Below, one piece after another: positions 52,617 to 64,000 of a DNA stretch of 64,000 nucleotides. How positions within the stretch are numbered: the first letter of the stretch is position 1; every line of letters begins with the position of its first letter. Made by a program: the position numbers and the translations under genes. The stretch comes from Sulfurospirillaceae bacterium (GTDB lineage Bacteria; Campylobacterota; Campylobacteria; Campylobacterales; Sulfurospirillaceae): NCBI GenBank assembly GCA_033723415.1, contig JAWVXD010000001.1:352001-416000 (forward strand), written 5' to 3'. The notes under the pieces were generated by a model. That model was not told where the DNA came from, ran no database searches, and saw only the letters and a program-made list of their open reading frames with translations.

Positions 52617-55478
52617 ATGTCCGAGACTTGCAATCGTAGACCAAAGTGTACACATCAAAAATATGGTGATTCTACGAAGTGTATCTTGCATTGTGATAAA
52701 TCAAATTTTAACGATGATGATATAAGATTTTTTTGGGAAAAAATACGGGAAGAATATATTCAGTACTCTTATCCTGATATTTCTAATGAGATTATCATAG
52801 AAGATGTAATCTTCCCTAAATTTGGAATTTTTAACAGGTATAACACATATTTTTTTCAAGGCAATTGTAGATTCCTTCATAATGTAAAATTTATAAAGTG
52901 TATTTTTACAGATAATTTTGATTTATCACAAGCCGAATCTAGCCAAAAGATAACATTTGATAATTGTACTTTCTATGGAGATATTCAGTTCAGCCAGTCA
53001 AATACAATAGAGATAATAAATAATTCTCAGTTTAAAAATGAAGTCTCATTTGGACATTCCTGCTGGAATAAATTAGAGATAAAAAGCACCAAGTTTTTTC
53101 AAGATACAAAAATATACATAAAAAATGATTTAAATATAGATGATTGTACTTTTAATAATGATGTCTTAATAGATGGTTTTACTACTTTGAACTTAGGTAT
53201 TAAAAACGGATCATATAAGAAACTAGTAACCATAAGTAATACCAAAAGTATAAAGCTTGAAGATGTTAAATTGAACTCAGATGTAAATTTCAGTGGGACT
53301 AATGATAATATCGATATAAAAAATATCGAATTTAAGAAAGATGTGACTTTTGATGCATTTAATAATTTACACTTAAACAACACCCAGTTTCATCAAAAAA
53401 GCAATTTTAGTCCAAACCCATATCATGACATCACTTTTGACAACACAAAAATGAATGATGTGGAATTACATTCTGGGAATACTTTGACTATCGTTAATTC
53501 TAGTGAAGTCAATGGAAATCTAAAGCTAAACGAAGTATATCAAAAGTTAAATATTGAAAATTGTAATATTAAGAAAAACTTGAATGTTGGCAATGTCAAG
53601 GAGATTATATTAAAGTGGAGTAGACTTGAAAAAAACTCAGTATTTAGCGGTGTATATAATGATGTAGATATCTTGGAATGCTCATTTAAAGACTTGACAA
53701 TAAATGCAACCAATACAATAAAAATAAGTGACAGTAAAATTACTGGTGACCTTGATTTGCTTGGACAAGACTATAAAGATATATCTGCCAGCCACACTGA
53801 GATTTCTGGTACGATACAAATAGGTAAAGCGACAAAAATAGAGTTAATTGATCTAAAACCAAATCCATCTCTAAAACTGATAAATGATGAATATGAAGAT
53901 GTCAATATAAAAGACTCAAGATTTACCGATGTTAAAATGAACTCTATAAAGGTATTAAATATTCAAAAGACTACAATAAATGGTATATTTAGTTTATTGG
54001 GAGAACAAAATCAAAATTTAACCTTTAATACGGTTAAATTTAAAAATAGATGTGATTTTCCTAATATTACTAAGTTGATTTTCAATAAAAGCAGTTTTGC
54101 AAAAGATGTGAATTTTAATACTTTAGGCAGGTTAGTTTCAAATCAAACTCAATTCAATGAAGACGTGAAATTTTTAGCAGAATGCACAACTATTGAACTT
54201 GAAAATTGCGAATTTCATCAAAAAATGCAACTCTCAAAAGTTACAAATTCGTTGGATTTCAAATCTTGTTGCTTTAAAGGGGAGGTCGATTTCAGGAATG
54301 GTGAATTTAAGGTAGTAAATATACTTTCTTCAACTTTTGAAGGTGATTTATTGTTATCCTCATCCATAATAGAAAAAATTCATCTAGATAAGATAACAGA
54401 AGAATTGGCTGAAAATAACTCATTTTCTTCCGTAGATTTTACTGAATCACAAATTAAGTATATTACTATAGCCAACTCTAATTTTAGTGGTACATTAAAA
54501 TTTACAAAGTTACAGCAAACACAATCTTTATTATCCTTAGATAATATTACAACGTCGACTATTGAATGTTTGATGATTGAACATAGTACGATAATGAACT
54601 TATTTAGGAGTTCCAAGCATCTAATAATTAACAATTTTACACTAGAAAATGTAAAATTAGACACAAATAGTTCAGAAATAGATTTAACAGATATAAAAAT
54701 AAGTGAACTAAAATTCAATAAAATAAGTATCTTAAAAAATATGAATTTTAGTGAAATGAAGATAAAAAAATTCATAATAGGCAATTCAAACATAGAACAT
54801 GTATTTAGAATAAAATACTCTGATATAGGTACTTTTACACTCATATCTAGTACTTTTGAAGACTTACAGATAATAGACAATAAATGTGAGCATTTTGATG
54901 AAGAAAAAAAATTAATATTGAGAAACACGACAATAAAAAATGCTGTATTAGACAAATTAAGATATAACAGTTTTATTATGAATGATGCTCATGTAAGTGA
55001 TGTTAAAATAGGTTATGTAAAGTTCAAAAAGGGGAGTAGAGAAACAAATAGATTTTTCAAAAATTATTATGATTCAATTAGTGATTATATTACAGCAAAT
55101 ACATATTATAAACAAGAGATGGAAGAACAACTCAAAGCTTCTTCTACTGATAACGGGGAGAAATTTGTTTTATGGATAGGGAAAACAGTTTCTAATTTTG
55201 GGCAAAGTTGGAGTCGACCTCTTTGCTTAATGATTTGTTTTTCAATTTTCTTTTTTATGTATATGCATTGGCAAATATTTTATAGCTACGGATGGCATTA
55301 TTTATGGCAAAGTAAATTAACTATTTGGAATGAATTTTGGGAATTTTTAAATCCATTTGTAAGAACAATTGATCCACAATACAAAGGAAGTTATAGTATT
55401 TGGATATTTCATAAAATATTGATGGCTATTCTCATGTATCATTTTATTGTAGCAGTAAAAAGAAAAACAAAAAGATAA
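52617..55478 (+). CDS. Large pentapeptide-like beta-solenoid protein with C-terminal membrane domain
   Basis: N-terminal CILHC, long F-x-x-x-x-F repeat region, SNFGQSWSRP followed by TM helices. Confidence 0.7.
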   Translation: MSETCNRRPKCTHQKYGDSTKCILHCDKSNFNDDDIRFFWEKIREEYIQYSYPDISNEIIIEDVIFPKFGIFNRYNTYFFQGNCRFLHNVKFIKCIFTDNFDLSQAESSQKITFDNCTFYGDIQFSQSNTIEIINNSQFKNEVSFGHSCWNKLEIKSTKFFQDTKIYIKNDLNIDDCTFNNDVLIDGFTTLNLGIKNGSYKKLVTISNTKSIKLEDVKLNSDVNFSGTNDNIDIKNIEFKKDVTFDAFNNLHLNNTQFHQKSNFSPNPYHDITFDNTKMNDVELHSGNTLTIVNSSEVNGNLKLNEVYQKLNIENCNIKKNLNVGNVKEIILKWSRLEKNSVFSGVYNDVDILECSFKDLTINATNTIKISDSKITGDLDLLGQDYKDISASHTEISGTIQIGKATKIELIDLKPNPSLKLINDEYEDVNIKDSRFTDVKMNSIKVLNIQKTTINGIFSLLGEQNQNLTFNTVKFKNRCDFPNITKLIFNKSSFAKDVNFNTLGRLVSNQTQFNEDVKFLAECTTIELENCEFHQKMQLSKVTNSLDFKSCCFKGEVDFRNGEFKVVNILSSTFEGDLLLSSSIIEKIHLDKITEELAENNSFSSVDFTESQIKYITIANSNFSGTLKFTKLQQTQSLLSLDNITTSTIECLMIEHSTIMNLFRSSKHLIINNFTLENVKLDTNSSEIDLTDIKISELKFNKISILKNMNFSEMKIKKFIIGNSNIEHVFRIKYSDIGTFTLISSTFEDLQIIDNKCEHFDEEKKLILRNTTIKNAVLDKLRYNSFIMNDAHVSDVKIGYVKFKKGSRETNRFFKNYYDSISDYITANTYYKQEMEEQLKASSTDNGEKFVLWIGKTVSNFGQSWSRPLCLMICFSIFFFMYMHWQIFYSYGWHYLWQSKLTIWNEFWEFLNPFVRTIDPQYKGSYSIWIFHKILMAILMYHFIVAVKRKTKR

Positions 55479-55504: not shown

Positions 55505-56560
55505 TTAAAACAGATCCGTGGTTTTTTTCAATCTCTCTTGGTCAAAATGCGTATAAATTCTGGATGTATTGATATCTGCATGACCGAGGGATTCTTGAAC
55601 GAGTACCAAATCTCTGTTTTTTTGGTAGAGCAGGGTGGCAAACGTGTGTCTTAGCATATGGCAACCGTTTTTCTCTTTCCTTAAGCCCGCACTCATAAGT
55701 ATCTGCTCAACTAAGCGGCTTAGATAGGCTTGTGTTAATTTTGTGCCCTTTTGATTGCAGAACATCAGCCCGTCTTCACAATTTCTGATCTCAAGCCATG
55801 CAGCCAAGTCCTCTTTGATCACGCGCTCTCTTATCATGACGACTCTGGATTTATTTCCTTTTCCTGTTATCTTTATGATGTAATTATCTTCTTCTTTGAA
55901 AAAGTCCTTGATCTTGACACTGATCGCTTCTCCGACTCTGATGCCTGTATAAAGGATTAGTTTTATGACCAAGCGGTTCCTAGCGCCAAGTTCAGGAGTT
56001 TTGTAATCAAATGCATCGATTGCATTGATAAATCTAGAGGCTTCTTCTTTGTTAAGAAAAGAGGGCAGTTTGACACCGCTTTTCCCGCTCAAACCGCCCC
56101 AATTTTTAAGCTCTATACCATATCTGTAGGCGTTGCCGTTTTCATCTTCATTTTGTTTATCTATATAACCAAAAAAGCCAAGTAGGGCGATACGGTAGTT
56201 TTTTTTACTCGCATCTGACAAACTTGAAGTCTCACTCGCTAAAAAATCACTCAGAAGCTCTTCATCGATCTCTTTCATAGAACCTGCACCAAATCGCATA
56301 AGATACTCATATAGCTTTTCAAGTGGACGGTAATAGACATGAACGCCACTCATACCTATATTTCTCGCTTCTTTTAAAAGATTTGTTAGAGTTTTTATAT
56401 CACTGGTACCTTTTGCTAGATTTTGGATAATGATTGCCAGTTTGTCTTTGTCCGTTACTTGTCGATTTGAAAGAGTCGTAACCTTGTTGCGTATAAATCT
56501 ACTAAGCCAAAAAAGATACGTTTGACTAAAAGTCGACTCAAGATCAAGAGAATACCTCAT
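55505..56560 (-). CDS. xerH: Tyrosine recombinase XerH
   Basis: Catalytic R-K-HxxR-H-Y (GIRVGEA, GKGNK, HMLRH, LGH, SRIYTH); N-terminus LFWLSRFIRNK..LSN typical of XerH; adjacent difH. Confidence 0.92.
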   Translation of the reverse strand: MRYSLDLESTFSQTYLFWLSRFIRNKVTTLSNRQVTDKDKLAIIIQNLAKGTSDIKTLTNLLKEARNIGMSGVHVYYRPLEKLYEYLMRFGAGSMKEIDEELLSDFLASETSSLSDASKKNYRIALLGFFGYIDKQNEDENGNAYRYGIELKNWGGLSGKSGVKLPSFLNKEEASRFINAIDAFDYKTPELGARNRLVIKLILYTGIRVGEAISVKIKDFFKEEDNYIIKITGKGNKSRVVMIRERVIKEDLAAWLEIRNCEDGLMFCNQKGTKLTQAYLSRLVEQILMSAGLRKEKNGCHMLRHTFATLLYQKNRDLVLVQESLGHADINTSRIYTHFDQERLKKTTDLF

Positions 56561-56606: not shown

Positions 56607-56640
56607 AATTGTATTGGAAACTGTAATTTCCAAACTCTTA
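56607..56640. other. difH chromosome dimer-resolution site; probable left attachment junction of the provirus
   Basis: AATTGTATTGGAAA-CTGTAA-TTTCCAAACTCTTA: inverted arms around a 6-bp spacer, closely matching Campylobacter difH as recalled; about 50 bp upstream of xerH. Confidence 0.85.
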
Positions 56641-56708
56641 TTTGGATTTATTGGCTTGAAACTTAAACGAGTGAGAAATTATGAGTTAAAACTTAAAAAG
56701 AGTATGTC

Positions 56709-57332
56709 ATGATAGACATAAAACTCATTGATAAGTTTAAAAATGGCCGTACAACGGTTGAGAATGATATTTTACTAGATAGTACCTTGACAGCAACTGA
56801 AAAGATAGTCTATATGTACATCGAAATGCTATCGCACAAAGATAACTACTGTTATGCGACAAATATACAGATATCGGATCTTACCGGACAAACAATAGAC
56901 TCATTGAAACAAGCATTTAAAAAACTCAAAAAGAAAAAATACATTGTAGTCGATACGCTACAAACGCGCACACCATACAAGCGCCGTATATTCACGGAAA
57001 CACGTTTTTTACGTGCTTGGAATCAAAACACCCTACCCCGTGACTGTACGGTAAAAGAGCCAATAAAACGGCCTGACGAGCTAGATAGACAAGCAATCAG
57101 CAAGTCATTTCCAAAGTTTAGGAAATTCATAAAATTATATCTTACAGAAAATCAATTTAACATCACTACACCGGGCGAACTTCAAAACAAAACTATCATG
57201 ATCAAAAAGAACGGCTACTACACAAGCATTTGGGATGCGCGAGATCTCACAAAAGATGAAAGCGTAACGTTTGAAATGCTGATGTTCGATAAACGCGAAA
57301 CATTGCTAGATAATTTTTTCAATAAGGAGTGA
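56709..57332 (+). CDS. Winged-helix phage replication initiator-like protein
   Basis: LLDSTLTATEKIVYMYI...YCYATNIQISDLTG...LKQAFKKLKKKKYI resembles HTH_36-type phage replication N-termini. Confidence 0.65.
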   Translation: MIDIKLIDKFKNGRTTVENDILLDSTLTATEKIVYMYIEMLSHKDNYCYATNIQISDLTGQTIDSLKQAFKKLKKKKYIVVDTLQTRTPYKRRIFTETRFLRAWNQNTLPRDCTVKEPIKRPDELDRQAISKSFPKFRKFIKLYLTENQFNITTPGELQNKTIMIKKNGYYTSIWDARDLTKDESVTFEMLMFDKRETLLDNFFNKE

Positions 57333-57520
57333 AAATGCAAATCAAAAAAGGTGATATTATTGTCTATAAAGTCGGTAAGAATACAAAGCAAAGCAAAGTT
57401 AGAAAGATGAACTTTGATAATAGTGCTTCAATTTTTGCAAAAGAAAAGATCATACCTTGGGATAATATTTTAGGCGTATGCTCTACTATAAAGGATCATC
57501 ATGATAATCGAAATAAATGA
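57329..57520 (+). CDS. Phage hypothetical protein
   Basis: 63 aa, AAGGAG RBS, overlaps upstream stop. Confidence 0.6.
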   Translation: MKMQIKKGDIIVYKVGKNTKQSKVRKMNFDNSASIFAKEKIIPWDNILGVCSTIKDHHDNRNK

Positions 57521-57716
57521 GGAAGATTATGACTTTATCATGTATCTTATCAGAGAGGAAATATATGATAAAAAAGACAGTTTAGAGATACTTAAAGGCA
57601 AAGATCATTTTTATGGTAACGAAGATCCATATAGGATAAAGAGGATCAAAGAGTTAAAAAGAGAGATTAGAAAGATTATTGAACTAAGGAGAGCTTTAAA
57701 ACGAGGAATAAAATAG
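57501..57716 (+). CDS. Phage hypothetical protein
   Basis: 71 aa, AAGGA RBS, basic coiled-coil C-terminus. Confidence 0.6.
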   Translation: MIIEINEEDYDFIMYLIREEIYDKKDSLEILKGKDHFYGNEDPYRIKRIKELKREIRKIIELRRALKRGIK

Positions 57717-57812: not shown

Positions 57813-58262
57813 ATGGGAATAACAAATTTTTTCAGCGGTTTATTTAGCAGCGGAGCCGCAAAAGTAGTCGATGCGATCGGCAATGCAGCAGATAAACTCT
57901 TTACAAGCGATGCAGAGCGTTTACAATTCCGTAATGATCTACAAAAAGAGCTAGACGATCTCAAAGTCAAACTCAATGATGCACTTGCGGCATACGACAA
58001 AGAGATCACGACACGCTGGCAAAGCGATAACGAACACATCATCACGCGCTTAGTGCGCCCTCTTTCGTTTATATACGTTCTCGTCATATTTTCATTTATG
58101 GCGCTACTTGACGGAAATATCGGAACATTTCATATCAACACGGCTTATTTGCCTATATTTCAAGGGTTACTTGGAACTATGGTTGTCGCCTACTTTGGCA
58201 GTCGTGGTATCGAAAAAGTATCAAACATAATAAAAAAATCAAATCAAGGAGATAACCAATGA
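57813..58262 (+). CDS. 3TM holin family protein
   Basis: DKLFTSDAER...RWQSD...VRP...YFGSRGIEK pattern of GTA_holin_3TM-like holins. Confidence 0.8.
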   Translation: MGITNFFSGLFSSGAAKVVDAIGNAADKLFTSDAERLQFRNDLQKELDDLKVKLNDALAAYDKEITTRWQSDNEHIITRLVRPLSFIYVLVIFSFMALLDGNIGTFHINTAYLPIFQGLLGTMVVAYFGSRGIEKVSNIIKKSNQGDNQ

Positions 58263-58594
58263 GTACAAAAAAGCAAATAGATCAGATCGAAGAGATAGAA
58301 GATCTACCCGATCAACTTGATCCACCAAATCCAGAGATTGAAAAGGAAAAGCCGGAAGTTGAGATAAAAGAAACTTTGACACCGGATCTCGAAAAAAAGA
58401 TTGATGAGATTGAACATAAATTAGATCAATATCATGTTCAATCTATCAAAAAAGAATTTGAAGATCATTCAAAAGAAAAACTACAAAGATCAAAATCTAA
58501 ATTTATTTGGTTATTTGGTAGTATTTGTGTTGCTAGTATTGGCTTAATACTTATAAAAAACGCTAAAAACAGCGAAACGGAGGCTAATGGATGA
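58259..58594 (+). CDS. Phage membrane-anchored protein
   Basis: Acidic N-terminus, C-terminal TM helix; ATGA overlaps on both sides. Confidence 0.7.
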   Translation: MSTKKQIDQIEEIEDLPDQLDPPNPEIEKEKPEVEIKETLTPDLEKKIDEIEHKLDQYHVQSIKKEFEDHSKEKLQRSKSKFIWLFGSICVASIGLILIKNAKNSETEANG

Positions 58595-59154
58595 GTAAAG
58601 AAGCGGTTGACGGAACGGATAATGGCGTAGAAAGGAATATTCCTTTTGAAGAAATGGGAAACAGTACGGAGGGCATTACCCGTACTGAGTTAATGGAAAA
58701 AACCGGCAAAGAACTAGCAAAAATGGCATTGCCTTATACAACTTGGAAAGAGAGTACATTATCAAAGTTATCTAAGCCAGAACTATGTGATATCATACTA
58801 ACAAAAGGAGCAAATAAAGAGCAGCAAGAGCCGAGAGCTAGAGCAGCAAGAGCCACGAGTGATAGTGAAGCAATTATCGAGACATTTCTTGCTATTGCAG
58901 AGAGTTTTAAGCTTAAAAGAGAAAAAGAGCCTTTAAATGCTACAGCCAAACAGATCTTTAAAAATAATGCCGTTAATTTAGTCGATAAAAAGGTTGAAGA
59001 GGAAACGTTAAGCAGCCACGGTGTAAATGTTACAGTGGCATTTATTGCCGGTACATTTTTAGCTATAGACGGGCTTATAGGCTTAGCAAACATCCCAACA
59101 TTCTTTTCAAAGATAAAGAGCAAACTAAATGTTAATAAAACAGAAGCAAAATAA
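58591..59154 (+). CDS. Phage membrane-anchored protein
   Basis: 187 aa with C-terminal hydrophobic segment, GGAGG RBS; directly upstream of ATPase. Confidence 0.7.
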   Translation: MSKEAVDGTDNGVERNIPFEEMGNSTEGITRTELMEKTGKELAKMALPYTTWKESTLSKLSKPELCDIILTKGANKEQQEPRARAARATSDSEAIIETFLAIAESFKLKREKEPLNATAKQIFKNNAVNLVDKKVEEETLSSHGVNVTVAFIAGTFLAIDGLIGLANIPTFFSKIKSKLNVNKTEAK

Positions 59155-59785
59155 GATAATTACAGTTATCGGACATAAGGGCTATGGAAAAACAGCTTTA
59201 ACAGAAGCCCTTATGCTTATGTATGATAAACCGACAATTATCGCAGATCCACGATTTCAATACTCTACTTTTCAAAAGCGCCGTGTAAGCTTTAGATCTG
59301 TAGGTGATTTTAGAAAGTGGATCTATAACACGGCAAATTTCAAAGATTTTTATAAATACAAACTCGAACTCGTCGTAAATGCTTTTGATGATACATTTGA
59401 AGAGTTAGCACATATTGTGAGACAAATGAGATCTTTGATGTTTGTCGTCGATGAAGTAGATATGTTCTTAGATCCACGGGCTACAAAAAACAACTCCTTG
59501 AACAAAATTATTCAGTATGGTAGACACCACGAGATCGACATCATAACTACTTCTAGGAGACCGGCAAACATCTCGCGTAACTTAACATCTCAAACAGATA
59601 TATTTTATTTCTCTAAGTTACGCGAGCCAACTGATAAACTGTACATAAAACAAGCGATAGGTGCAGAATATGTCAGTACCGTTGAAAACTTAGAGAGATT
59701 TAGCTTTTTAGAGTTTGAAGACGAAGAACACCAAAAGATCATCACTACTTCTGAAAGAGATCTTGAACTATTACAAAGAGGGTGA
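59129..59785 (+). CDS. FtsK/HerA-superfamily genome packaging ATPase (P9/A32-like)
   Basis: Walker A GHKGYGKT, Walker B FVVDEVD, arginine-finger region YGRHHEIDIITTSRRPANI...SQTD; about 220 aa, no TM. Confidence 0.85.
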   Translation: MLIKQKQNKIITVIGHKGYGKTALTEALMLMYDKPTIIADPRFQYSTFQKRRVSFRSVGDFRKWIYNTANFKDFYKYKLELVVNAFDDTFEELAHIVRQMRSLMFVVDEVDMFLDPRATKNNSLNKIIQYGRHHEIDIITTSRRPANISRNLTSQTDIFYFSKLREPTDKLYIKQAIGAEYVSTVENLERFSFLEFEDEEHQKIITTSERDLELLQRG

Positions 59786-59810: not shown

Positions 59811-59906
59811 ATGCAAGCAAAATTGATGAAAGGCTTTGTCTTAGGTATCACCGTAGTTGTTATAAGTGGCGTTGTGGGTAAATGGATCCCATCCGTAAAA
59901 ATATAA
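59811..59906 (+). CDS. 31-aa phage membrane protein
   Basis: MQAKLMKGFVLGITVVVISGVVGKWIPSVKI preceded by AGGAGG; the track's 59715 start is probably too long. Confidence 0.75.
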   Translation: MQAKLMKGFVLGITVVVISGVVGKWIPSVKI

Positions 59907-59932
59907 AAAAATTTATCATATAAGGAAAAAAT

Positions 59933-60040
59933 ATGAATATCACAAAACTTGATGTTTATTTGGCAGCAGGTATCTTAGTTGGCATTGCAGCCGGGAAAAA
60001 ATTTGTTGATCCGATCTTAGTTTCGGTTTTGGGGGCATAG
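59933..60040 (+). CDS. 35-aa phage membrane protein (not in ORF track)
   Basis: MNITKLDVYLAAGILVGIAAGKKFVDPILVSVLGA preceded by TAAGGA; stop lies 1 nt before capsid gene start. Confidence 0.78.
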   Translation: MNITKLDVYLAAGILVGIAAGKKFVDPILVSVLGA

Positions 60041-60041
60041 T

Positions 60042-61001
60042 ATGGCGCAATCATTAAAAGTAAAAGAAAATTCCGCAACGTGGGCAGCTTCTACTCAATC
60101 CAGGATCCCTCTTAGTAGAAATTATCATGTGGAAAATTACCTTGTGAAAATAAAAGTAACACATGATAACGGGGCAACCCCTGTGTTTTATAATGAGGGC
60201 GTTTTTTCTTTAATTAACAATATACAGTTGATTGGAAATGGCAATGAAAATATTAAACAAATGCCAGCAAACAAATTATATATCGACAGTATTTTAAGAA
60301 GTGGGAAAAATGGCGGTAACTCTCTTGATACTACAGCAAACAAAACCGGACTTACAAGCTATGTTTGGGCCCGTATCAATCTAAGTATGCCAAATTCTGT
60401 TCGACCTTGGGACACTATCCTATGGACAAAACCATTCCAATCTCTCGATCTTATGATTGATTGGGCTTCAAGTGCAAATATCGGATCTAATATTACTGTA
60501 ACAGCAGCAGAAATGACAGTATTTTCAAATCAGTTAATCGGATATAGTAGAGCAAAAGGCGAAGTGATTAAATACTATGAAGAAACAGCACTTAAAGAAG
60601 AAGTGACTGGAACAAATGCTCAATTAACTTTCAATTTACCAGTAAATAAACTTTATAGAGCTATTTCTATAGTATCAACAATTAATGGCTTAAGAGCTGA
60701 TACTGTGATAAACTCTATTAAGCTAAAAAGCGGGCAAACAGTTTTTTGTGATTGGGATGCTGAAGCATTTAACGAACACAATAAAGAAACATATCGTATT
60801 GAATCATCAACAGATTTTAAAGGAATCTATGTAGTTGATTTTGCAGAGCGTGGAAGACTAAGCGATATGCTGAATACAATCGTAGCACAAGGTGGTTACA
60901 ATACTTTAGAACTTGTTTTAAACGTCACAAAACAAACGGGATCAAACTTTGTAGACGTCTATTTTGACACGGTAAAACAGACTACAGCAACGGAGGTTTA
61001 A
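60042..61001 (+). CDS. Putative double-jelly-roll major capsid protein
   Basis: 319 aa, beta-strand-rich two-domain pattern reminiscent of STIV/PM2 capsids; located two small genes after the packaging ATPase. Confidence 0.75.
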   Translation: MAQSLKVKENSATWAASTQSRIPLSRNYHVENYLVKIKVTHDNGATPVFYNEGVFSLINNIQLIGNGNENIKQMPANKLYIDSILRSGKNGGNSLDTTANKTGLTSYVWARINLSMPNSVRPWDTILWTKPFQSLDLMIDWASSANIGSNITVTAAEMTVFSNQLIGYSRAKGEVIKYYEETALKEEVTGTNAQLTFNLPVNKLYRAISIVSTINGLRADTVINSIKLKSGQTVFCDWDAEAFNEHNKETYRIESSTDFKGIYVVDFAERGRLSDMLNTIVAQGGYNTLELVLNVTKQTGSNFVDVYFDTVKQTTATEV

Positions 61002-61002
61002 T

Positions 61003-61308
61003 ATGCCTAATTATAACGGGGATGGCACAAACGGCGGTATTTCCACCGCCTCCACTCCAATTTCAGGAACGGTAAATGGTACTGATTGGTTATCAAATAT
61101 TTTAAAGCCTATTAGTAATGCCGTTGTTACAGTTGCACAAACACAAGCACAAGTTGACGCACTAAAATCACAGACCGCTACACAACAAAATTATCAAAAT
61201 ACACAAAACGCAATTGGATCTAAAAATATCATTGGCGGTGTGGATAACAATATCTTACTTTTGGGTTTAGTTGGTGTAGTCGGAATTTACATGTTTATGA
61301 AAGGGTAA
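61003..61308 (+). CDS. Virion membrane protein
   Basis: G/S/T/Q-rich with C-terminal TM (ILLLGLVGVVGIYMFMK); follows capsid gene. Confidence 0.7.
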   Translation: MPNYNGDGTNGGISTASTPISGTVNGTDWLSNILKPISNAVVTVAQTQAQVDALKSQTATQQNYQNTQNAIGSKNIIGGVDNNILLLGLVGVVGIYMFMKG

Positions 61309-61311
61309 ATT

Positions 61312-61698
61312 ATGGGTTTCTTTGGTGGAAGTGCTAGTAGTAGCGGAATTGTAACAAGTAGCATTAATTTTAACCCGTCAATGCAGTTTGGCACAGATAA
61401 TACAGCAAAGCCCTCTCAATCAGTAAGTCAGACACCCAAATTGACACAAACTACAAAGGATCAAGGGCTAGCAGCCGCCGCAAGTGTTGGGCTTGGTTTT
61501 GGTGGGAGTGGATCTGCAGGGCCGGCAAGTTTGGCAGAAGCTCCTCTGGTTGGATCTGCACAAACTGGAAGCGCTGCACAGCCTTTAAGTACTTTGGCAT
61601 CTAATTACAAAAAATATTTGCCTTTACTTGGCTTAGCCGGAGTTGGTGGATATATGCTAATTGTAAATGATAAGTCTGGAAAAAAGGCTAAAAAATGA
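61312..61698 (+). CDS. Virion membrane protein
   Basis: G/S/A-rich, C-terminal TM then basic tail. Confidence 0.7.
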   Translation: MGFFGGSASSSGIVTSSINFNPSMQFGTDNTAKPSQSVSQTPKLTQTTKDQGLAAAASVGLGFGGSGSAGPASLAEAPLVGSAQTGSAAQPLSTLASNYKKYLPLLGLAGVGGYMLIVNDKSGKKAKK

Positions 61699-62009
61699 GT
61701 TGGTTAAGTAGTCTTTTAGGTGGTGGAGGCAGCACAAGCTCCACTACCTCAAACACAACGGTAAGTGTAAGTCCAACTACAATTATAAATACCGATAAAC
61801 TGGCTCAAGCTATAGCAGACGGAAATGCAACACAAGCACAACTTGCACAAGCAACAATCACAGCACAAGTAGCCGAACAAAACGCAAAATTGCAACAAAA
61901 CGCGCAGATCTTTGATACCTTAAGAGCAGGCGCAAAAAAATATGCTTTTTTAAGTTTGCTAGGCTTTGGAGTTTACAAGATTTTTAAAAACAAAAGAGGT
62001 AAAAAATGA
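61695..62009 (+). CDS. Virion membrane protein
   Basis: S/T-rich then Q/A coiled coil, C-terminal TM and basic tail. Confidence 0.7.
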   Translation: MSWLSSLLGGGGSTSSTTSNTTVSVSPTTIINTDKLAQAIADGNATQAQLAQATITAQVAEQNAKLQQNAQIFDTLRAGAKKYAFLSLLGFGVYKIFKNKRGKK

Positions 62010-62560
62010 ATTACAACGTAATTACAAAAGATATATCTAACGGGCTATCTCTTAGTCAAAGCAATACACTTGGAAAAGGAGATTATATTATCTTAAGATA
62101 TGCGCCGGATCTTGCGAATGTACGAGTGAGATTAAACAGCCCTGATGCTCCTGCAATAAGTATGATACAAGATGACAGCATCAATGCAAAAGGCATAAAT
62201 CTTGTATATATCGAGTGTGACCCAGTAGCAGCAGAAAAGATAATCTTTGCCCAGGGCAATACAGATCTAGACTTTCAAATCAATCCGGCTCCTGCTCTTA
62301 AAACTGTAAATGTAAACGGATCTTTTATGCCGCGTACGGATCAAAAACAAACGATAGCTGCAGGAGCAAATTTTATATTAGACACAACGACACTTAAAGC
62401 GATCAGGTTTCTAGCTACTGATTACGTTGATGTGTCACTCAATGGCAGTGCAATAAACTATCAAATGCTAGAAGATGAGATCTACACGGGTAATATCACG
62501 TCGTTAAAGTTTACAAACAACACGGCTTCAGCCATTGATCTTGTAATATGGGAGATGTAA
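62006..62560 (+). CDS. Putative vertex/penton protein
   Basis: 184 aa, beta-rich, two similar-looking halves, in structural block. Confidence 0.45.
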   Translation: MNYNVITKDISNGLSLSQSNTLGKGDYIILRYAPDLANVRVRLNSPDAPAISMIQDDSINAKGINLVYIECDPVAAEKIIFAQGNTDLDFQINPAPALKTVNVNGSFMPRTDQKQTIAAGANFILDTTTLKAIRFLATDYVDVSLNGSAINYQMLEDEIYTGNITSLKFTNNTASAIDLVIWEM

Positions 62561-62561
62561 A

Positions 62562-62942
62562 ATGTTAGGTATTTCAAGAGCTTTGGTAGAAAAACTTTTC
62601 GCAAAAAAAAGCGACAAAAATCAGTGTACAGCTTGGGTTGTATTTGACGGAACAACAACTCCTCCAACAATAAAAGATAGTTATAATGTTATTTCTGTTA
62701 CTAAAATTGCAGTCGGTGTCTACGATATAAATTTTACAATACCTATGAAAAATATAAACTACCAAACAAGTGGATCTGTAACAGATGATAATTCTTCTAG
62801 TGGGTTTATCTATGAAAGAGGCACTTTTGCACAAAATAGAACCGTTAATAAATGCAGAATTGTAACTATTCAGATATCTGGAGGTAATACAAGTACAGTT
62901 GATCGTTCAGGGATAACATTCAGCGCAATTGGAGGTATCTAA
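62562..62942 (+). CDS. Putative receptor-binding/spike protein with tail-fibre-type domain
   Basis: TAWVVFDG...IKDSYNVISVT...GVYDINFTIPM.N.NY motif common in phage tail-fibre C-terminal domains. Confidence 0.65.
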   Translation: MLGISRALVEKLFAKKSDKNQCTAWVVFDGTTTPPTIKDSYNVISVTKIAVGVYDINFTIPMKNINYQTSGSVTDDNSSSGFIYERGTFAQNRTVNKCRIVTIQISGGNTSTVDRSGITFSAIGGI

Positions 62943-63253
62943 TGGGATATTTTAAAGTAGTTAACGATTATGTTCAAACGTGTAGTAAAAAAATAGATGA
63001 TACTTGGTTTCCAATTACTAGAGATCAAAACGGAAATATCATCGGGCCGAGTGTTCTAGTCACGCAAATTGCAGATGAACAAAAAGCAACTTCAAACGCA
63101 AAAATAATGCAGCAGATAACAGCACTTGAAAGTGAACTGATAAGACCGATGCGAGAGCTTTTAAGCTCAATTGTAACAGACAAAACCTATGCTCAAACAA
63201 AGGTAAATGACATCGAAACAAAAATTGAAGCTTTGAGGGCTCAAATTGTCTAA
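62942..63253 (+). CDS. Putative fibre-associated chaperone-like protein
   Basis: ITALESELIRPMRELL...IETKIEALRAQI helical motif like proteins encoded next to phage fibre genes. Confidence 0.5.
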   Translation: MGYFKVVNDYVQTCSKKIDDTWFPITRDQNGNIIGPSVLVTQIADEQKATSNAKIMQQITALESELIRPMRELLSSIVTDKTYAQTKVNDIETKIEALRAQIV

Positions 63254-63314
63254 GAAAAAAATAATAGCCTATGGCTCTTTTTTGGTGTCATTGGTATATT
63301 TTAGGAGTTTTTTT

Positions 63315-63779
63315 ATGTACGGATTAATTTCAAAAAAACATTTGGACGAAATTATCGTCAATGTAGTTAATACACTAGGTGGAGGTCAAAATGCTATAGA
63401 TCTTTTAAGCGAAACGGCTATGTCGGAGACACACTACGGAGATACACCGGACCTACACTTACACAGCGGTTATGGAATTTTTCAATTTGATAAGCCAGGC
63501 TTTGATGATGTAGTTGCCAGAACACCGCAAAGTACAAAGGATCTCATCAAAAAAGTCTATGACATTGACATCGATCAAGTCAGCATATTGGCGCTGCAAT
63601 GGTCGCCGCTTTTAAGTACGATCTTTGCACGACTTTTTTACATGCTTCGCCCTGGTGCGATCCCTGATACAATTCAAGGACGGGCACAGTATTGGAAACA
63701 GTATTACAACACTTTTGCGGGAGCAGGAACGGTGCAACATTATCTTAATGCAAACCAAACCGAAAGGTTTAACGCATGA
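63315..63779 (+). CDS. Lysozyme-like endolysin/lytic transglycosylase
   Basis: LLSETAMSET catalytic-Glu-like helix, GYGIFQFD, YWKQYYNT.AG.GT; ATG 63315 has AGGAG RBS (alternative TTG at 63246). Confidence 0.7.
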   Translation: MYGLISKKHLDEIIVNVVNTLGGGQNAIDLLSETAMSETHYGDTPDLHLHSGYGIFQFDKPGFDDVVARTPQSTKDLIKKVYDIDIDQVSILALQWSPLLSTIFARLFYMLRPGAIPDTIQGRAQYWKQYYNTFAGAGTVQHYLNANQTERFNA

Positions 63780-64000
63780 CACCAACTTTAAATAATAATT
63801 TAGCGGATATGTTTGTTGCGTCCACACCGGTTTTGCAGACGGCACCGATACAGTCAAGCAATTTAAGTACATTTGATAAGATATTATACGGTTATGATAA
63901 TATGATCTCAAATGCTAGTAATTCAGCAGATCAAACGCTTACAGATCAAGCGATTGCACAAGAAAAATTTAAACAAAATGCATCGAATATGTATACAAAT
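63776..64000 (+). CDS. Phage hypothetical protein, truncated by window end
   Basis: ATGA overlap with lysin stop; open for 75 codons (MTPTLNNNLADMFVAS...NASNMYTN). Confidence 0.7.
   Translation, partial: MTPTLNNNLADMFVASTPVLQTAPIQSSNLSTFDKILYGYDNMISNASNSADQTLTDQAIAQEKFKQNASNMYTN

Follow-up and report, generated by a model that had tools for sequence, protein, structure and literature searches.

A 9.2-kb tailless prophage of the STIV group that probably uses host XerH to integrate at difH

The window, a stretch of 64,000 nucleotides from a Sulfurospirillaceae bacterium (positions 352,001 to 416,000 of contig C1 in the genome analysed, G000, 2.43 Mb), carries towards its end a prophage of 9,214 bp which lies between two difH-type sites and continues 1.85 kb beyond the window; positions past 64000 are counted on. 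Outside the prophage is the host xerH gene (55505..56560, minus strand) coding for the single Xer recombinase, a protein of 351 aa with the Pfam domains Phage_int_SAM_6 and Phage_integrase. An intact difH at 56610..56636 (plus strand), about 50 bp upstream of xerH and recognized from the published difH tables (PMC2731167; PMC3325230), is the left junction, attL. The right junction, attR, is a degenerate difH at 65824-65850 (G000:C1:417824-417850) whose centre and right arm agree with attL in 17 of 18 positions. Just outside xerH, at 52617-55478, a low-GC gene codes for a protein of 953 aa with pentapeptide repeats and, C-terminally, a membrane region; it is absent from the corresponding place in G075, a genome with a related prophage of 9,159 bp.

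The phage genes are all on one strand (plus), starting at 56709 with a gene for a replication initiator of the HTH_36 type (207 aa; 56709..57332; PF13730, E 3e-8, and the PHROG replication initiators). It is followed by two small soluble ORFs of 63 and 71 aa (57329..57716), to which the Pfam and PHROG scans assigned no function and of which the 71-aa one is kept in G075 with a pN/pS of 0.34, and by a holin gene (149 aa; 57813..58262; phrog_3427 holin, E 9e-14, and weakly PF11351). Two membrane proteins of 111 and 187 aa, recognized by their hydrophobic segments (58259..59154), are encoded directly upstream of a packaging ATPase of the FtsK/HerA type (218 aa; 59129..59785; phrog_2666; PDB B204, E 2.5e-6). 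Neither membrane protein belongs to an informative Pfam or PHROG family, and the 187-aa protein has no usable Atlas match; the two accompany the ATPase in most relatives, even the one with a different capsid, and we infer that they form an assembly module with it. The best match of the ATPase, both in PDB and with phmmer, is the STIV-type packaging NTPase B204, with YY scoring nearly as high; in the ATPase tree, which has no rows for L075 and L076, its grouping with STIV2 B204 is without support.

Two tiny hydrophobic ORFs with ribosome-binding sites (31 and 35 aa; 59811..60040) take the position of PM2 gene VII, to which they were compared by position alone. They precede the gene for the major capsid protein (60042..61001, 319 aa). 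Downstream, three small proteins rich in Gly, Ser and Thr (101, 128 and 104 aa; 61003..62009), whose order is kept in relatives and which have no informative family in Pfam or PHROG, could be internal-membrane or cement proteins. The next gene (62006..62560) codes for a 184-aa protein modelled with a pLDDT of 79 as two beta-sandwich domains; with a Z of 7.4 its matches to chains of PR772 (rmsd 2.9, 85 aligned) and of PM2 are in the range that beta-sandwiches commonly reach by chance, and the protein is probably the vertex protein (penton or spike). A variable receptor-binding region with ORFs of 126 and 103 aa (62562..63253), the former matching phrog_11355, tail fibre, with E 2.5e-12, differs among the relatives. 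It is followed by a conserved 177-aa protein with an N-terminal hydrophobic segment (63246..63779; phrog_3108 of unknown function, E 4e-23), which was found in most relatives examined and may be a lytic enzyme. Another 126-aa ORF (63776..64000) only begins inside the window. Past the window end there are ORFs of 40 and 44 aa followed by a terminator, a lipoprotein-like ORF of 132 aa (64659-65057) and three 23-bp palindromic repeats at 65453-65528, spaced by 32 and 21 bp, a number and spacing equal to those in G075; the repeats are a putative iteron origin near the right end of the prophage.

Compared to G075, nine phage genes have pN/pS values between 0.13 and 0.61, that is, in the purifying range; the lowest value is that of the ATPase (0.13), and the capsid gene has 0.31. 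A promoter scan of the element was uninformative. An ORF preceded by a strong ribosome-binding site would cross the attP junction and stop on the rep start in three of the five difH elements, G000, G075 and G367 (80, 80 and 90 aa; here L001:15684-15866 joined to 56637-56712); its first 50 codons have a pN/pS of 1.29, and it is therefore not claimed as a gene.

The product of 60042..61001 was put forward in the initial annotation as a capsid candidate with a double-jelly-roll (DJR) fold, and all five peptide stretches quoted there are present in the ORF. Among 1121 candidates 33 are homologues, nearly full length and 28-69% identical, the closest being labelled by its source as a Sulfurospirillum species, and a search of 1.84 billion representatives at 50% identity gave 288 relatives at E<=0.001. 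An AlphaFold model made from an alignment of 150 rows has a pLDDT of 97.2, a pTM of 0.92 and two beta-barrels. The 13 best structural matches of this model are without exception viral DJR capsid or scaffold proteins, and a best match to a non-capsid or HK97 fold, which the annotation had named as the result to speak against it, was not obtained. Model and searches together support a DJR capsid. Used as a single sequence the protein found no capsid in PDB, and nothing in the phage collection, and its likeness to STIV is therefore visible only by profile: the PDB match has E=1.2 with a profile of 34 rows and E=2e-16 with 150 rows. Neither the capsid alignment nor the ATPase retrieved relatives from the viral contigs scanned.

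The group to which the capsid belongs is a separate matter. VIA-align of the model against 48,161 chains gave a Z of 28.9 for STIV (rmsd 2.6, 292 aligned) and, tied with it, 27.9 for PRD1 (rmsd 2.9, 302 aligned), and PM2 came under both with 23.6 (rmsd 2.8, 252 aligned). The structure searches by themselves do not part STIV from the tectiviruses, and a capsid closer to PRD1, GC1 and Wip1 than to STIV has to be considered, since Foldseek puts PRD1/PR772 first (E 8e-24) with STIV at rank 30, and in the BFVD ranking the tectiviruses GC1 and Wip1 lead with STIV fifth. The Foldseek rmsd is, however, lower to STIV, as is that of VIA-align, the 150-row profile finds STIV chains alone in PDB, hhalign gives 98.1% with STIV2 over 276 columns, and the element has no DNA polymerase gene; we regard a tectivirus affinity as very improbable. 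Even less credit can be given to the reading of the element as a divergent corticovirus of the PM2 group. It draws on the gene layout, which is collinear with PM2, on the Pfam family P2_C, which matches the capsid at E 6e-5, under the curated cut-off (82 of 150 capsid family members match P2_C and 30 match P2_N), and on the matches of the ATPase to YY and Jorvik. The hhalign value with PM2 is only 3.9%, however, the VIA Z is well under that of STIV, and the bit scores of the capsid profile against four references are 64.9 for STIV2, 13.2 for PM2, 7.3 for YY and 1.4 for Jorvik. In a capsid tree of 36 rows, which has no tectivirus rows and leaves out the long-branch capsid of G193, the PM2 group is separated from all others at 100/100, so that the capsid does not fall inside the corticovirus clade. 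In this tree 13 Campylobacterota-linked rows and two unlabelled proteins form one clade (90/87), which joins STIV2 at only 81/80; an earlier, quick tree was likewise made without tectivirus capsids.

Profiles and tree thus bear out the STIV-type capsid proposed from the sequence, and support a place in the STIV group outside both the corticoviruses and the Turriviridae. The latter have an archaeal host, their own integrase and a genome near 17 kb; the present element is integrated beside xerH in a chromosome of Campylobacterota type, has 9,214 bp and gave no recombinase match. The PM2-like gene order which had also been noted holds for the layout only (ATPase, small membrane genes, capsid, membrane genes, vertex, lytic gene): none of the element proteins tested matched a PM2 protein at E<=0.05, and in the STIV2 genome the ATPase adjoins the capsid gene as well. 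Against PM2, Jorvik and YY, phmmer gave no homologues of P3, P8, gp-j or a rolling-circle Rep beyond two borderline matches, though short proteins may escape such a search.

Inspection of the xerH/difH neighbourhood, also suggested in the annotation, led to the prophage ends. The last 18 bases of the difH at 56610-56636 are found again, with one mismatch, at position 65833; nowhere else does the genome have a sequence within two mismatches of them, and 0.02 matches at one mismatch would be expected genome-wide. The left arm of attR has diverged. A first difH motif search missed the site at 56610 because the lineage carries a variant (56616-56632), in which paired changes in both arms keep the palindrome, and a repeat search of the window was blind to attR because this site is beyond the window end. 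The variant adjoins xerH in 12 of 30 loci of the host family, in which 55 of 61 genomes have an xerH orthologue, and its right arm is also present in attR. Three relatives without the phage (G406, G409 and G412) have one intact difH beside xerH and, in the stretch fetched, no second copy on the far side.

No recombinase was detected inside the element, either by two queries at E<=1 or by Pfam, searches which a novel fold would escape; xerH is the only tyrosine recombinase match by tblastn in the genome. A DUF3653/XafT-like activator was not found among the proteins scanned. The element has features of an IMEX (integrative mobile element that exploits Xer): two dif-like sites, repeated in the same orientation, bound it, it has no recombinase of its own by these two queries and Pfam, and one junction restores the host dif at the terminus, the left site being the family variant and the cumulative GC skew of contig C1 peaking at 415 kb, within the prophage. 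In G000, G075, G367 and L020 the degraded arm of the second site is the left one. According to Bebel et al. (PMC5241119), the left arm is the first to be bound and cleaved by XerH and is to be equated with the XerD arm, which is the arm degraded in the TLC and GGI elements (PMC5357621); by this equation the attachment design matches the known IMEX class in a system with one recombinase. A difH-type attP was seen on none of five free circles. A search of sequencing runs gave one run with the element, probably the source run, and no RNA run among the matches listed; a contig of that run covers the element without a break and lacks an attP/attB joint, a result that says little since rare forms are lost from contigs.

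The capsid profile matched eight of 401 genomes of the phylum, one of them through the distant contig of G106, and the ATPase also matched eight of 401; by family the ATPase profile was found in 3/251, 3/173 and 5/61 genomes. The contigs L017 (G106), L075 and L076 are more distant members of the STIV group and were excluded from the clade counts. L017 (G106:C25) is a terminally redundant contig of 9.5 kb whose capsid groups with STIV2, and it may be foreign to genome G106.

A dif pair is present in each of the eight full-length elements whose two flanks are host DNA. Five pairs are of the difH type: G000, G075, G367 (9,954 bp), G193 (10,564 bp), where both sites deviate and the right one is the sole full core match, and L020 (9.1-9.2 kb), which has a weak right site for which there are two candidates. 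The remaining three (G253, G244 and L064) are of the XerCD type, the degenerate arm in L064 being that of XerC and not XerD, and in G253 and G244 there are two short Xer-like genes and no match at the xerH level. G430 has a difH-like site at its single available end. Of five distinct terminally redundant contigs, three (L021/L068, L022 and L058) have, some 200 bp ahead of rep, an attP of the XerCD type in which the XerD arm is degenerate. The circles L054 and L060, close relatives of 8.5-9.0 kb, gave no convincing dif-like site and have a resolvase-like gene and an unrelated cysteine-rich Rep candidate; they are possibly plasmid-like prophages, and a part of the capsid clade thus lives differently. 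A resolvase-like gene is also found in G193 and G325. In G312 four truncated ATPase/capsid remnants are found at separate loci (contigs C14, C105, C121 and C133), with no convincing dif-like sites at these places. The XerCD users fall into a single nested group (quick tree, SH-aLRT 98; 36-row tree, 96/96) and the difH users are scattered over the capsid tree, a pattern that would agree either with difH use being older or with plain tracking of the host. A non-viral element flanked by difH was encountered in G333: a 1.17-kb cassette (L097:7008-8200; G333:C19) lies between an intact difH and a copy with a degenerate left arm, and has two ORFs, one of which is weakly RelE/HigB-like (E 0.03).

The element of G244 (L093:5754-9989; G244:C7) combines an autolykivirus-like capsid module with the chassis of the STIV relatives. 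To the relatives with STIV-type capsids its ATPase is 82-88%, its Rep 40-45% and its lytic enzyme 66-69% identical, and it shares with them the two membrane proteins, a small regulator and the type of attP. Its capsid, of 276 aa, shares 68% identity with that of the autolykivirus-like contig L116 and has a 265-aa DJR capsid (9t9v) and PM2 P2 as PDB matches; three genes downstream of it match L116 at 35-38%, and the L116 proteins gave no significant match to the G000 ATPase. The ATPase tree nests G244 among the XerCD users with STIV-type capsids (97/99), and forcing its capsid together with theirs was rejected (p-AU 5e-52). The capsid type was seen in one of 251 genomes, in a single assembly for which a chimera is possible. 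Taken as it stands the sequence indicates a capsid swap which breaks the usual congruence of capsid and ATPase. The capsid and ATPase trees of Varidnaviria have been described as congruent overall with small differences (Woo et al., PMC8328091), and G244 would be a close-range exception; autolykivirus-like DJR elements of Sulfurimonas have been catalogued, with no remark on such incongruence in the part of the source covered here (Li et al., PMC11531552), and no report of this kind was found in the literature by title or abstract start. G244 and its relatives make up a matched pair for asking whether the ATPases pump DNA or act in concerted assembly, alternatives left open by the NO16 paper (PMC13552765). 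In L110 (G451:C47) a capsid of the clade is paired with a far more divergent ATPase, 31% identical to that of G000, possibly a second module exchange.

We propose, with a probability of about 0.8, that the element is a temperate tailless dsDNA phage of 9.2 kb of the STIV group, probably membrane-containing, which has no recombinase and integrates at difH by means of the host XerH. Integration through host Xer, as an IMEX, is most likely because no integrase could be detected and a dif pair is present in all of the full-length integrated relatives. The circular phage genome would carry a dif mimic, attP, with centre and right arm intact and the left arm degenerate, and XerH would recombine it with difH at the replication terminus. 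The host would thereby keep an intact difH, the other copy being crippled so that excision is slowed, and the circle would be opened with the putative iteron origin on one side of the cut and the rep gene on the other. Upon induction the genome would recircularize and replicate in the theta mode from the iterons with the HTH Rep, the ATPase module would help to build the DJR shell around a membrane, and the holin and the 177-aa enzyme would lyse the cell.

The strongly degraded left arm of attR, the fact that no Xer activator was recognized among the proteins scanned, and the decayed remnants in G312 could instead mean that the prophage did enter via XerH and is now locked in, making no virions. 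This is rather unlikely: all genes are open and the nine tested are under purifying selection, a degenerate arm is normal in TLC- and GGI-type elements, and relatives of the XerCD type do occur as circles. Still less likely is that the dif pair came about through insertion by other means, be it an integrase since lost or supplied by a helper, or a serine resolvase, acting at a terminus hotspot, and not through XerH. Some relatives do encode a serine resolvase and dif regions attract mobile DNA generally (PMC2731167), but the G000 element gave no resolvase match, its second site copies the dif variant of the host's own lineage, and the site becomes XerCD type in hosts without xerH.

Returning to integration by XerH, we lean, by a narrow measure, towards a wider proposal: that small STIV-group phages form a family found throughout the phylum, are the first known exploiters of XerH/difH, retune attP between two unrelated host Xer systems (difH and XerCD dif) with neither an integrase nor a known activator, and have an ATPase-membrane module which serves the capsids of two deeply separated DJR groups. 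From the last point it would follow that the "packaging" ATPase does not recognize the shell. In the literature considered, IMEXs have been described for XerCD and, once, for XerL, and an XerH IMEX would offer a natural substrate for studying how a dif system with one recombinase accepts a crippled first-cleavage arm. Exact ends are now given for a phage group which prophage tools score as low-quality fragments.

The lineage itself is only partly new. The initial annotation suggested a distinct DJR lineage in Campylobacterota and a clade is indeed found in the trees, but Li et al. (2024; PMC11531552) have published two STIV-group (vOTU_60 and vOTU_61) and three PM2-group DJR contigs from Sulfurimonas. 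The accession of their vOTU_61 is that of our locus L022, which has the same clade and gene order as G000 and a capsid 42-43% identical. These vOTUs were described as genome fragments, whereas the G000 element is complete, integrated and bounded; "xer" does not occur in the main text of that paper, and the part of it considered here describes neither an attachment site nor an origin of replication nor a swap of modules. The bacterial STIV group of Yutin et al. (2018; PMC5894146) likewise has an STIV-related capsid, a packaging ATPase and a beta-sandwich gene, but many of its members encode a tyrosine integrase themselves and have replicons of the RCRE, MCM or polymerase kind, and nothing of this sort was detected in the G000 element; Campylobacter, Helicobacter and epsilon have no occurrences in its main text.

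STIV and STIV2 (Turriviridae) provide the best profile match of the capsid and the best PDB match of the ATPase, but they have archaeal hosts, 16.6 kb, their own integrase and capsids only 13-16% identical. The capsid of STIV has a membrane-contacting C-terminal tail. This tail has no counterpart here, the STIV capsid being 345 aa compared to 319 aa and the present model ending in a strand.

In their mode of integration the closest systems are others. The dif-type DJR prophages of Vibrio (PMC12715192) are integrase-less with a dif-mimic attP, as proposed here, but they have PM2-like genomes, use XerCD and carry a P15/XafT and P16 module; neither "XerH" nor "STIV" occurs in that source. LME-1 of Legionella (PMC9765430), a different element, is likewise an IMEX depending on a single recombinase, with one intact and one modified dif, but uses XerL and not XerH. 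XerH is mentioned solely as an alternative machinery in bioRxiv 2021.09.09.459576, and the literature searched, which left out most subscription journals, contained no XerH-exploiting element. Judged by these comparisons the new parts are the proposed XerH integration route, the apparent switch between Xer systems and the putative capsid swap, in a lineage that was partly known.
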